Source of the DNA: Octopus vulgaris
Taxonomy: Eukaryota
Direction of reading: 5' to 3'
NCBI GenBank assembly: GCA_951406725.2
Contig: OX597821.1
Span: 116,932,001 to 116,996,000 of the forward strand
Length of the DNA stretch: 64,000 nucleotides
Shown here: positions 5,029-61,688 of the stretch, one piece after another
How the letters are laid out: each line of letters opens with the position of its first letter
Numbering within the stretch: position 1 is the stretch's first letter
Made by a program: the position numbers and the translations under genes
Notes under the pieces: model-generated
Told to the model about the DNA's origin: nothing
Seen by the model: the letters and a program-made list of their open reading frames with translations, nothing else
Databases searched by the model: none

Positions 5029-5520
5029 TGTATGTATGTATGTATGTATGTATGTATGTATGTATGTATGTATGTATGTATGTGTGTATGTATGTATGTA
5101 TGTATGTATGTATGTATGTATGTATGCATGTATGTATGTATGTATGTATGTATGTATGAATGTATGTATGTAAGTATGTATGTATGTATGTATGTATGTA
5201 TGTATGTATGTATGTATGTATGTATGTATGTATGTATGTATGTATGTATGTATGTATGTATGTATGAATGTATGTGTGTATGTATGTATGTATGTATGTA
5301 TGTATGTATGTATGTATGTATGTATGTATGTATGTATGTATGTGTGTATGTATGAATGTATGTATGTATGTATGTATGTATGTATGTATGTATGTATGTA
5401 TGTATGTATGTATGTATGAATGTATGTATGTATGTATGTATGTATGTATGTATGTATGTATGTATGTATGTATGTATGTATGTATGTATGTATGTGTGTA
5501 TGTATGTATGTATGTATGCG
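1670..5520. repeat. ~3.85 kb (TATG)n microsatellite
   Basis: Near-perfect TATG array with sparse TGTG/TAAG/AATG variants; source of all YIHT/MYVC ORFs. Confidence 0.98.
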
Positions 5521-18625: not shown

Positions 18626-19346
18626 ATGGCTAATCAAACTCATCGATTGACACTAGTGGGGCTAGTGATACTATGTTTTTGCCCATTAGTATCTAGTGTA
18701 TATTTACTGGGCACCGATACATCTTATGCCCAATTCTCGCTTTGGAATATATGTTTAAATTCCAGTTTGTCTTTTAGTTTCAAAACTTCTCAACAATCCG
18801 CTCTTCTCATGTACACAGATGACAATGGAGTAATGGACTTCTTTCAAATCAATCTGAAGGAAGGAATTATATCATTGACTATTAAAATTTCCAATCGTCC
18901 CGATGTGTCCCAAACTGTGAAAATCGCTGGACCGTTTCATGATAATCAATGGCACAGTGTTACGGTCAAACGAAATAGTGAAATCACTAGTTTCACGGTT
19001 GACCAGATCACGAAACAAATGCGCTTCGAAGGAACTGACTTCTTGTTCGGTTCGGAAAAGATCCATAACTATGTGTATTTCGGAGGTATGCAGGATCTTG
19101 ACAATAGTAAAGTGTCCAATCCAGAAGCGAAATATTCCGAACATTTCAAGGGATTCGTTCGGAATGTGATCTACGGGAATTGTTCTTGTATTCCAGTTCG
19201 TGCTGAAGTTGTCGGTGGAATAGATATAGATGATGGGGATGATGAAGCATGCAAAAAACCTTCGATCTGTGACAAAGGGTGTATCTGCATTCGAACGGAT
19301 AATGGATACGGCTGTGATTGCGTTTACCGGGAAACATGTTTGGAAG
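18626..19346 (+). CDS. NRXN: Alpha-neurexin-like protein, first coding exon (signal peptide, LNS1/laminin-G, EGF1); partial gene
   Basis: ATG at 18626 (ACAATGG) starts MANQTHRLTLVGLVILCFCPLVSS (signal peptide). SYAQFSLWN.CLNSSLSFSFKT...LLMYTDDNG..DFF.I.L.EG, DNQWHSVTVKRN and VYFGG match neurexin LNS1. An EGF-like Cys cluster follows, then a strong phase-1 donor GAAG|GTAAGG at 19346/19347, consistent with neurexin exon structure. Candidate acceptors end at 18287 and 18491. Confidence 0.88.
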
Positions 19347-42249: not shown

Positions 42250-42585
42250 AGACCCCCTTCAGTCATGACTGACCGTGGGATTACACCTAGAAAGTTACCT
42301 TCCCAGGCACAGGTCTGGGCAAGATTGTTTTATGGAAGACCAGCAGTCGCCCATGCATACCGGCTTCACCTCTCCACGCCACCAGTGTTATCCAAGGGAA
42401 AGGCAAGGACTGATACAGCTTGGCACTAGTGATGTCACAACTCATTTCTACAGCTGTGTGTTCTGGAGCAAAGTGAAATAAAGTGTCTTGTTCAAGAACA
42501 CAACACGCGGCCCGGTCCGAGATTCGACCTCACGACCTCACGATCGCAAGCTCGACCCTCTAACCACTGAACCATGTGCCTTCAC
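42250..42585 (-). mobile_element. tRNA-headed SINE (further family)
   Basis: Minus strand: GAAGGCACATGGTTCAGTGGTTAG (A box)...GGTCGAATCT (B box)...GTGTTCTTGAACAAGACACTTTATTTCAC. A second similar head lies at ~42120-42235. Confidence 0.7.
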
Positions 42586-42593
42586 TTAAATAT

Positions 42594-42748
42594 ACCTCTA
42601 GACAGGACGGAGCCACGAGATGATGGGATCCCAGGGCCGCAATGTGCATTCAAGGTGTCGATGTTCACTGAGTCCTGCAATTCACATCAGTTCACGTGGA
42701 TAGCCACACTCTTCATCGATGGATGAGCCAAGTGATTCCCTGTCCTCC
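42594..42748 (-). pseudogene. Dispersed 5.8S rRNA pseudogene (about full length, decayed)
   Basis: Minus strand: AATCACTTGGCTC...TCGATGAAGA...ATGTGAATTGCAGGAC...GAACATCGAC..CTTGAATGCACATTGCGGCCC...CCTGTCT matches the conserved 5.8S motifs in order. No 18S/28S sequence flanks it. Confidence 0.88.
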
Positions 42749-42771
42749 AAATATACATACACACACACACA

Positions 42772-42807
<36 letters not shown>

Positions 42808-43757
42808 ATCATCATCATATATGCGCCTAGGCGGGGAGATGGTGCAGGGAGTGGAGGTAGAGAGATCTGAATTAAGGCGGAAAGAGTTACTCAATTACGT
42901 GAAGTAGAAGTTATGTGTCCACATGTATCTGTTGTCCTTTTAGTTGTTTCAGCCATTAAACTGCAGCCATGCTGGGGCTGCCACCTTCAAGAATACTTGT
43001 CGAATGAATTGACCCTAATACTTATTTTCTTAAATCCTGGTACTTATATCAGCCTCTTTTGCCGAACTGCTAGGTTAAGGGGGCGTGTACACACCAATTG
43101 TGGTTGTCAAACGGTGGTGGGGAACAGACATAAAGACACACACAACACAATATGCACGCACGCACACACACATAAAGACACACACAACACAATGTGCATA
43201 AATGATGATGTATACAGCAGGCTTCCACACAGTTTCCCAGGGATATAATAGAAAACACTTGCTCAAGGTGCTGTGCAGTTGGACTGAACATGAAACAATG
43301 CAGTTGTAAAGTGAACTCTTTACCCATACAGCCATGCGTGCACCTGTTCAACTATTTGAACCCCTGCCCCACCAACACCACCCTCTCCTCAACAGATAAT
43401 ATTAATCATCATTAAAACACCTCGACTATTTTTAGCACCTCTCAGCTAACAGCACACACATGCAAATGTTCTTTTTAGTTGAAATGCCTTCTTTATTGAC
43501 TTCTCCATTTCAAGTGCACAGCTGCATGGCTGCCGTGTCTAAGTTTTTTGTGTCACTGAACGGTAAAGAGCAAAAAATACATACACTGTATACATTTGTG
43601 CAGGTGTACATATATGTGTACAGGGATCCCTCGACTATTGCAGGTGTTACATTCTAAAACCCACCGCAATAGGTGAAAATCCACCATGTCAAAACATTAC
43701 TGTACTGTGTACTTTTTTTTACTATTCTTATAATTTGTATATATCTATTTTATTATT

Positions 43758-44070
43758 ACGGAGATGTACTTGCATAGCAAGTGATCTGATCTGAGATCGT
43801 GTGCTGAAACGAAAACAATTGCAGCATGGAAGGTGTTTGTAAGCCAGTTAAGAAACACACAAAAGCCGTTCGATTCACTTCAACATTTAAGTTTAATTTG
43901 TTGAAAAATATTTTCATCGCTTTAAGACTGCGACCTGTTCTTGTCAGTGAACAGGTCACGGTCTTAAAGCGACGAAAATATTTTGACAAATTAAACTTAA
44001 ATGTTGAAGTGAATCGAATGGCTTTTGTGTGTTTCTTAAATGGCTTACAAACACCTTCCACTCTGCAATT
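43758..44070. mobile_element. Inverted-repeat element, probable Penelope-like pseudo-LTR pair
   Basis: ~125-bp arms (43817-43940 and ~43949-44070) are reverse complements, hence the mirror ORFs MEGVCKP... on both strands. The right arm holds a hammerhead-like fold. Confidence 0.6.
43941..43989 (+). ncRNA. Type-I minimal hammerhead ribozyme-like motif with G3/C8 core
   Basis: TTGTCA-GTGAACA-G-GTCAC-ggtcttaaa-GCGAC-GAA-AATATT-T-TGACAA: 6-bp stem I, stem II, GAAA, palindromic stem III. Confidence 0.6.
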
Positions 44071-44101
44071 ATTTATTTTATTATTTTTATATATTTAAGC
44101 T

Positions 44102-44329
44102 TTAACCCTTTCATTACCAACCCGGCTGAAACTGGCTCTGGCTCTGAGTACAAATGTCTTGTTTTCATAAGTTTTGAATTAAAATCTTCCACCAAACCTT
44201 AGTCACAATTTATGTTCCTAACACTAGCTGAATAATAATTAAATTATTTTACTAAATTCTTTGTTATATCTAAAGCAATTGAAAGAAACACAGAGCATCT
44301 CAAAATAAATGCAGTAACGAAAGGGTTAA
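44102..44329. mobile_element. piggyBac-type MITE
   Basis: TTAA|CCCTTTCATTAC ... GTAACGAAAGGG|TTAA. A decayed relative lies at ~45410-45632. Confidence 0.88.
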
Positions 44330-44764
44330 AAAGGTGCAGAACATTTGGGCGATATCGTAGGGCTTGAAATAAATTCACAATTTTACACACAAATGCAAAC
44401 AACACCACACACTCACCTCCGAGTTTCATTTTCCATACAGCATGTGAGATTCTTTAGTTACTCATCTATGATACACTACGTATTTTCTTTTTATATATTT
44501 TAATTGATGTGTTATTCACTGCAGTACTGTACTGTATTTTTATTTATTAATTTTTAGGCTCATTTTACCACAGAAATAATTAAGATCTAAAAAAATATAG
44601 ATACTTATTAGCCGCCGAAACCCATGATATACTGAGGCGTCCGCAATATAAATTTACATATATTAGCCAGAAAAATCTGCAATGTATTGAGGGCGTGATA
44701 GGTAAACCTTGATATGGTGAGTGATTACTGTATACACACACACACACACATCTATATATATATA

Positions 44765-45167
44765 TTCTTCTATTCTGTTAATTGTTTCAGTCATTTGACT
44801 GTGGCCATGCTGAAGCACTGCCTTTAGTCGAACAAAACAACCCCAGGACCTATTCTTTGTAAACCTAGTACTTATTCTATCGGTCTCTTTTACCGAACTG
44901 CTAGGTTACGGGGATGTAAATACACCAACATCGGTTGTCGAGCGATGGTGGTGGGGACAAACACAGACTCACAAATACATACATACGTACATATATATAT
45001 ATATATATACAAAGGGCTTCTTTCAGTTTCTGTCTACCAAATCCACTCACAAGTCTTTGGTTGACCCAAGGCTATAGTAGAAGATACTTGCCCATGGTAC
45101 CATGCAATGGGTCTGAACCTGAAGCCATGAGGTTGGGAAGTAAACCTCTTAACTACACAGCCATGCC
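44765..45167 (-). mobile_element. SINE family A
   Basis: Reverse-complement copy. Confidence 0.85.
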
Positions 45168-46715
45168 ATGCAGTCAAATGAATTAGGGGTCCACTCTGTA
45201 AGGTGGTTGGTGTTACGAAAGGGCATCCAGCCATAAAAATCCTGCCAAAACAGACTGAAGTCTGATGCAGTCTTCCATATAACCTAACCCTAACTCTAAC
45301 CCTAACCGTGTCAAACCGTCCAACCCATGCCAGCATAGAAAATGGACATTAAATGATGATGACAAAGAAACCATATCAAATATTGTGTATATGTTTTGTG
45401 TGACTTTTTGACCCTTTTTAGTAGCAACCTGTCTTTGAGATGACCTTTGGTTTGATGTTACAAACTTTGTATTTTAAAATTATCTAAATTAAACCATTCC
45501 ATGTTAATTTATATTCCAAACACCAGATTAATAATGGCAAAGTTAGTTTACAAAATAATTCTTCATTACTTTCAAAATTAATTGGAAGAAATGCTGTGTG
45601 TTTTGACAGCAATATGGTAACAAAAGAGTTAAAGTGATCTAAATTAATGTATTCTATCAAAATTTCATGTTAATTAATTTTCCAAACACCTCAGGAGTAA
45701 TGACAAAGTTATTTTACGAAATTCTTTATTAATTTTAAGACCAATTATAATATTCTGCAAAAATATATTTGGCCATAATGAAAAATTACCTTCCTTAGAA
45801 ACAAGCAAGGGTTGGCAACAGGAGGCACATCTGAGAATCTACCACAAAAAAATTCCTTCAGAATGATGCGAGCATGGAAACATAGACGTATACAATGTAT
45901 ATGTGTGTGTGTTTTGTATGTTCATATATTTCATAACCCATGCTAGCATGGAAAGCAGACGTTATATGATGATGATGATGATGATGATTCATATATTTAT
46001 TTGATATGTTTTTTCAGATTTTTAGTAAGTTTCTTTCTTGAAAATCATTAGAGCATGACAATACAAATTATGCTCTGATGATTTCTTAGAAAGAAACATA
46101 TTTTCAAATTTGTTGACATAATAACAGATAAACATTGACAGCTCTATATGAGAAATATAGACTTCTATACTCAGATAATCTGTGTGATTTTTTATATCAT
46201 TTTGAACAAGCTAACCTGCTAAACTATATGTATGTGTGGAGGCACTATGGTTAGGGCAACACACTCGCAGTCATTGGATCGTAGTTTCAATTCCCAGATC
46301 CGGCGTTGTAAGTGTTTATTGAGCAAAAACACCTAAAGCTCCACGAGGCTCCAGCAGGGGTGGTGGCGAACCCTGCTGTACTCTTTCACCACAACTTTCT
46401 CTTACTCTGTCTTCCTGTTTCTGTTGTACCTGTATTTCAAAGGGGCCAGCCTTGTCACACTGTGTATCATGCTGAATCTCCCTGAGAACTTTGTTAACGG
46501 TACACGTGTCTGTGGAGTGCTCAGCCACTTGCACGTTAATTTTATGAGCATGCTGCTCCGTTGATCGGATCAACTGGAACCCTCATCATTGTAACCAACG
46601 GACAGCCACCATATGTATGTGTATGAGCATAAGCATATATGCGTGTGTATGTATATGCATATACATACATACTTGTTAAAAAATATATGTATGCATACTT
46701 ATATATATATATATC

Positions 46716-61485: not shown

Positions 61486-61688
61486 GTTAATCCAAACAAG
61501 AAAACACAAAAAAAACACAACAACGCGAGGACGTGGAATAAATATAGTATTATTGGACGCTCAGGAAAGAAGGAGGGTTTAACGTTTCGAGCGGAGTTCT
61601 TCGTCGGAAACATAGGAGAAGGAAAGATCCAGAGAAGGGAAGACAGAGGAAAAAAATCGCCAACGGTACACACGAGGTCACATTTTGA

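Follow-up and report, generated by a model that had tools for sequence, protein, structure and literature searches.

Can a hammerhead-like core whose 3:8 pair runs G:C instead of C:G still make a ribozyme, and if so, on which RNA would it act? The question is raised by a motif in a 64,000-nucleotide stretch of Octopus vulgaris DNA (contig OX597821.1, positions 116,932,001 to 116,996,000; hereafter "the window"). A preliminary description of this locus had read it as a natural hammerhead-like ribozyme with a swapped core, belonging to a retroelement family that searches for the canonical CUGANGA pattern would miss. We followed this up computationally, through the anatomy of the motif, the element that carries it, its copies and relatives, and its predicted folding.

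Anatomy of the motif

All parts named in the preliminary description, i.e., stem I, the core, one extra G, stem II, GAAA, AATATT and UUU, were confirmed in the sequence (Table 1), with GAAA at 43974-43977, U17 at 43983 and UUU as the cleavage triplet. Hammerhead identity is found at U4 G5 A6, A9, G12 A13 A14, A15.1-U16.1, H17 and G10.1-C11.1, and so are two features of Penelope-element hammerheads, an extra nucleotide at 9/10.1 and a short palindromic stem III. The C3 and G8 of CUGANGA are absent: the motif has G3 and C8, which can form a Watson-Crick pair that covaries among relatives. Stem II of the window copy contains one A.C mismatch at 43958 and is 5 bp in most family copies; since the strand reads GTCGC, the consensus proposed earlier, in 96 of 100 among the genome matches listed (counted by eye), the mismatch likely reflects CpG decay.

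Table 1. Features of the motif, the insertion and the host gene (window coordinates)
Feature	Position	Strand	Basis or remark
Minimal type-I hammerhead motif, G3:C8 core	43941..43989	+	sequence reading and relaxed descriptor
Stem I 5' strand TTGTCA	43941..43946	+	partner strand 43984-43989
Core GTGAACA (G3 U4 G5 A6 A7 C8 A9)	43947..43953	+	sequence and family pattern matches
Extra G between positions 9 and 10.1	43954	+	reported as usual in Penelope-element hammerheads (PMC4209133)
Stem II GTCAC (43955-43959) / GCGAC (43969-43973) with 9-nt loop II	43955..43973	+	
G12 A13 A14, palindromic stem III AATATT (43977-43982), U17	43974..43983	+	predicted cut after 43983
Stem I 3' strand TGACAA	43984..43989	+	sequence
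Right arm: truncated pseudo-LTR of Penelope-like family	43941..44074	+	
First ten codons of element ORF, within pseudo-LTR	44040..44070	+	
Left arm: inverted pseudo-LTR copy, from core G5 to element 3' end	43756..43940	-	
Possible target-site duplication of 12 bp, second copy at 44074-44085	43746..43757	.	A+T only, weak
Signal peptide and laminin-G exon, neurexin-like host gene	18629..19144	+	context

A relaxed descriptor matched once in 43800-44100 and in none of 2,000 dinucleotide shuffles; drafted once the motifs were known, it shows only that such a layout is uncommon by chance. On the opposite strand, no antisense hammerhead match was found in 10 regions. No hammerhead family appeared among the 25 Rfam matches at E<=10 across 42500-45500, which agrees with the earlier expectation that CUGANGA pattern searches would pass over a swapped core. 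The Rfam matches at this threshold that lay over the motif were hairpin look-alikes only, and microRNA readings of the region were rejected, as they scored far under the Rfam gathering thresholds.

Two further features of the window were observed. At 61575-61610 (minus strand), a hammerhead-like motif of a different repeat family has the core CCGACGA (C at position 4), an extra nucleotide, a stem II and the palindrome ACGT, and a similar copy is found at locus L107. At 42593-42751 (minus strand) lies a diverged 5.8S rRNA-like sequence (83.8 bits, over the Rfam gathering score).

The element carrying the motif

Judged from its sequence, the motif belongs to a Penelope-like retroelement that is young and has reverse transcriptase (RT) and GIY-YIG domains, and it lies in the pseudo-LTR. 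The adjacent Penelope RT/GIY-YIG reading frame that the preliminary description had predicted was found on the same strand: in longer copies the ORF ends ~1 kb upstream of the motif, and at one locus (L097) it is open over 1,025 aa, with RT motifs, YVDD, a short cysteine linker and GIY-YIG (E=1.6e-5). A Pfam search of this ORF gave no RT match at E<=0.001, and the RT was identified via its motifs and a named homologue. The linker ahead of GIY-YIG is of the short CX2-5CxxC kind, its spacing being by eye closer to that of the Nematis rows and shorter than Neptune's.

The motif occupies both pseudo-LTRs of a full-length copy (L102), where two direct-orientation motifs at 5238 and 9499, 4,261 nt apart, flank the ORF, which is interrupted by stops. 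This copy was located by other means than the tail-pattern search for tandem full-length copies, which returned none in 21 loci. The start codon lies 92 nt downstream of G3; thus the tail of the pseudo-LTR already encodes the beginning of the ORF, an arrangement shared with the sister family described below. Inverted 5' copies and (TA)n flanks are common around copies of the element, partial tandems occur as well, and inverted 5' copies and (TA)n targets are reported for Penelope-like elements (PMC8557442). Furthermore, a branch-point-like CTAAC, a pyrimidine tract and an AG ~20 nt before the core (L096:6898-6922, plus strand) suggest that an intron ends here, as one does in Drosophila Penelope; the public contigs examined for such a pseudo-LTR intron contained no spliced joint. 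As a separate observation, a near-complete Neptune-like Penelope ORF with one stop adjoins a copy of the studied family at L062:1427-3868 (plus strand).

Near-fixation of G3:C8 in the family

The preliminary description had expected a large family with fixed G3 and C8. A 22-letter search pattern that allowed any letter at positions 3 and 8 gave 7,401 matches in the genome and none in the control; of these, 438 were non-C8 and 233 non-G3, leaving G3:C8 in at least 6,730 (91%), i.e., near fixation. Among the non-C8 matches listed, only one of 100 was C3:G8, and it is a member of another family. In 27 copies picked solely by an upstream 29-mer, G3 was present in all 27 and C8 in 25. Loop II takes several forms across family copies. 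A protein labelled Octopus vulgaris agreed with this genome at 100% over 128 residues.

Four public contig sets (four organism codes) had no letter differing in at least 5% of depth in the core or in G12-A15.1, and one stem I variant in the public contigs preserves a U.G pair. One high-depth contig of another organism code (compared over L096:6906-7029) kept G3:C8 and broke the stem III palindrome, with a changed loop II and a G.U as the basal pair of stem I. Being assembled contigs, these sets leave RNA ends invisible.

A sublineage with G3.G8 was considered and is not claimed: G8 made up 33 of 100 non-C8 matches listed, a control C in the same ACA context read G in 24 of 100, and 20 fetched copies were spread over several haplotypes (counts by eye). 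A generic G3:C8 pattern yielded 449 matches against 418 in the control and so showed no further large G3:C8 family, though an old subfamily of the window lineage surfaced. At L015:755-1560 (plus strand) we also observed a tandem array of ~166-bp units, each with a G3:C8 motif; this layout resembles that of retrozymes and could allow dimers.

Covariation of the 3:8 pair among relatives

The same genome also contains a sister family (RT 60% identical; sister-group support 99/98) that carries, at the equivalent place before the homologous start codon, C3:G8 together with C at position 9. An older member of the sister lineage has the canonical CTGAAGA, again with GTCA and GGTC on either side (120 matches), and its stem I is irregular. 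Among 14 metagenome loci, three motifs were found by pattern and one by eye: L140 and L144 have C3:G8, L141 has U3:A8 and L142 (the one by eye) U3:A8. Three others (L139, L143 and L147) had no motif after the ORF, and the other seven were uninformative, being too short or ending inside the ORF. Thus three Watson-Crick pairs (G:C, C:G and U:A) occur at 3:8 across the families. As the relatives have C3:G8 or U3:A8 at the same place, the 3:8 pair covaries, and G3:C8 looks, by parsimony, derived from C3:G8 in the window lineage. Position 17 is U in the window lineage, the sister family and the two closest metagenome motifs.

The C9 core is itself another variant that escapes CUGANGA searches. It was observed in the sister family, which is very young (L137:6707-6745, plus strand, also L136 and L138), with an ORF of ~1,310 aa and tandems 4.59 kb apart, and at L141 it occurs together with U3:A8.

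The old subfamily, discovered through core patterns, lies at a median of 18% from the column majority, compared with 8% for the younger set. In 18 of its copies unselected at positions 3 and 8, G3 was present in 17, C8 in 15 and both in 14. Old and young subfamilies, compared in structural register, differ at position 7, loop II, stem I and stem III: in stem I a T-A pair is replaced by G-C, one compensatory pair of the kind the preliminary description had predicted, and in stem III a 2-nt indel preserves the palindrome (AATT). A test of extra conservation of the motif between old and young did not reach significance as run (33/40 vs 52/69, p=0.48), the alignment having misplaced the 2-nt indel.

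Does the motif cleave?

Taking these results together, we consider it likely, with a probability of roughly 0.6, that the G3:C8 motif in the terminal repeat of this young element is a weak self-cleaving ribozyme acting on the element's own RNA. The cited papers provide the chemical background: in hammerheads it is the 3:8 pair that brings the residue 8 ribose into its catalytic position (PMC6155905, PMC8495972), and single changes at 3:8 abolish activity, which the C3G/G8C double change partly restores (PMC11167929, PMC8495972). Partial rescue by the same double change was also obtained in a Penelope-element hammerhead, one that depends on its protein for cleavage (PMC11167929), and it is from this engineered rescue that weak cleavage appears likely.

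In the mechanism that we propose, i) the G3:C8 pair would hold the ribose at position 8 in its catalytic placement; ii) two motifs would join through the AAUAUU palindrome; iii) the protein of the element would probably assist cleavage; and iv) the cut after U17 would trim the RNA used for retrotransposition. Dimers could form because the full-length copy carries the motif at both ends. In folding predictions, an intact copy (L096) gave pair probabilities of 0.85-1.0 for stems I and II, and the double-hammerhead fold of its dimer had an energy of -25.4 kcal/mol, ~4 above the -29.5 of the best predicted dimer; for the window copy this gap was 8 kcal/mol.

The U17 of the window lineage and its nearest relatives may have permitted the swap. 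A G3-C8 hammerhead is reported to be more active with G17 than with C17 (PMC3884650), which fits a competing G3-C17 pair. More tentatively, an animal retroelement lineage may have long used an active G3:C8 hammerhead, a pre-existing U17 having enabled the swap since G3 would mispair with the usual C17; position 17 would then decide which 3:8 pair can evolve, and a hidden swapped-core class, thousands of copies per genome, would be missed by CUGANGA searches. If this is true, the canonical sister family would serve as a natural control.

Several points weigh against the weak-ribozyme reading: i) in engineered ribozymes the swap brings only partial rescue, and minimal Penelope hammerheads are reported to be slow cleavers already (PMC4209133); ii) the double-hammerhead fold lies above the predicted best dimer; iii) the C9 of the sister family and the irregular stem I of its older member imply a clade tolerant of odd cores; iv) one high-depth contig of another organism code breaks the palindrome; v) the conservation test was not significant and the old subfamily was found by core pattern; vi) ribozyme-dead mutants of another element still inserted in vitro (PMC11167929).

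The main rival sees in the motif the descendant of a hammerhead, retained on account of its fold and no longer cleaving to any relevant extent, which would serve instead in protein binding or in RNA folding, either close to the start codon or close to where reverse transcription begins; we regard this as possible but doubtful. A UUU site and a swapped 3:8 pair are both expected to be slow, and the sister family has C9, which speaks for a retained fold. In addition, insertion in vitro was not impaired in ribozyme-dead mutants and, in an Anolis element, the cut site had no reads ending at it (PMC11167929), and Naiad elements spread without canonical hammerheads (PMC8557442). However, 3:8 stays Watson-Crick in all motif-bearing lineages, and U4 G5 A6, G12 A13 A14, A15.1-U16.1 and a non-G at 17 are all kept; moreover, the 3:8 pair serves the active conformation and not the secondary structure.

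It is also conceivable, and in our view quite improbable, that function was lost first and the changes at 3 and 8 then became fixed in a master element by drift, so that the pair is coincidental and the copying neutral. Copies of a young family inherit the letters of their master regardless of function, and both the insignificant conservation test and the discovery of the old subfamily by its core would suit such drift, but G3:C8 persists from old to young while position 7, loop II and the flanks change, stems I and III differ in compensatory ways, and three different Watson-Crick pairs occupy 3:8 across the families.

The window copy in its neurexin-like host gene

The weak cleavage proposed for the element's own RNA probably does not extend to the copy in the window. 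This copy sits in sense orientation within a neurexin-like gene, between laminin-G exons, further laminin-G exons lying outside the window on the same strand as that in Table 1; judged by these exons its position is putatively intronic, and a homologue search with the host exon gave nothing at E<=1e-15. The motif sits within a near-perfect inverted repeat formed by the left and right arms, which the preliminary description had left unweighed, and from its layout the copy is a truncated head-to-head insertion. The right arm is 96-99% identical to the top genome copies (40 of 1,325 first-look candidates in the 2.8-Gb genome being scored), and the window contains no second sense copy of the motif.

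Two earlier statements on the mirror arm were upheld in part. Its GTCGC/GCGAT reading is correct, but the arm is no hammerhead, as it lacks the positions before G5 and has an altered 3' strand of stem I; C8 is indeed retained in the antisense arm, but both arms stem from the same insertion, so this alone is weak evidence that C8 is not a one-off mutation. When the window copy was folded with its left arm, stems I and II had a pair probability of 0.0 and arm-to-arm pairs ~1.0, i.e., the hammerhead is predicted to be buried in an arm-to-arm hairpin of ~130 bp. Given this predicted sequestration, the copy, though sense to the neurexin-like gene as described earlier, probably does not cleave the host pre-mRNA and is best read as an inert insertion, its inverted repeat being a likely substrate for double-strand RNA editing. 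That it might be a co-opted intronic ribozyme cleaving or regulating the neurexin-like pre-mRNA, as its strand and its place between laminin-G exons could suggest, is extremely improbable in view of these in-context probabilities, the stem II mismatch, the lack of a second sense copy in the window and the 96-99% identity to many other copies.

Comparison with known systems

In the article texts and supplements searched, only engineered swaps and no natural G3:C8 core were found, and a prior report is possible; the parts covered of PMC6155905, PMC7151607, PMC11014351, PMC6962438 and PMC6765202 name none, and a bioRxiv preprint on retrozymes yielded no passage on octopus. A natural U3-A8 is already published (PMC4209133, PMC3088659). 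The octopus motif would therefore bring to three the base pairs found in nature at 3:8, the most constrained tertiary pair of the hammerhead core; the swapped family has amplified recently, and its canonical sister resides in the same genome. Two questions become directly testable: for what reason C3:G8 dominates in nature when the swapped pair functions in vitro, and whether cleavage is a requirement for Penelope-like elements. Methodologically, thousands of motifs in a single genome escape both Rfam and patterns with a fixed core.

The element resembles the C-terminal-endonuclease Penelope-like elements surveyed by Craig et al. 2021 (PMC8557442) in its single RT + GIY-YIG ORF, the CX3CxxC linker spacing of the Nematis rows, partial tandems, inverted 5' copy and (TA)n; it differs from the nematode Nematis rows in its RT motifs, the likeness to Nematis resting on linker spacing. 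Its motif shares with the minimal type-I hammerheads of Penelope elements (Cervera and de la Pena 2014, PMC4209133) the pseudo-LTR location, the extra 9/10.1 nucleotide, G10.1-C11.1, a short palindromic stem III and many truncated or inverted copies. In contrast to those, which in the text covered are C3-G8 with one U3-A8 variant in Schistosoma, it has G3:C8, and its cleavage triplet is UUU. Natural covariation at the 3:8 pair was also described by Perreault et al. 2011 (PMC3088659), whose variants are U3-A8, no natural G3-C8 being named in the parts covered. The closest counterparts at 3:8 are the engineered C3G/G8C hammerheads (PMC11167929, PMC8495972, PMC3884650), which carry the identical swap with partial rescue; unlike these laboratory double mutants, the octopus swap is natural and present in thousands of copies.
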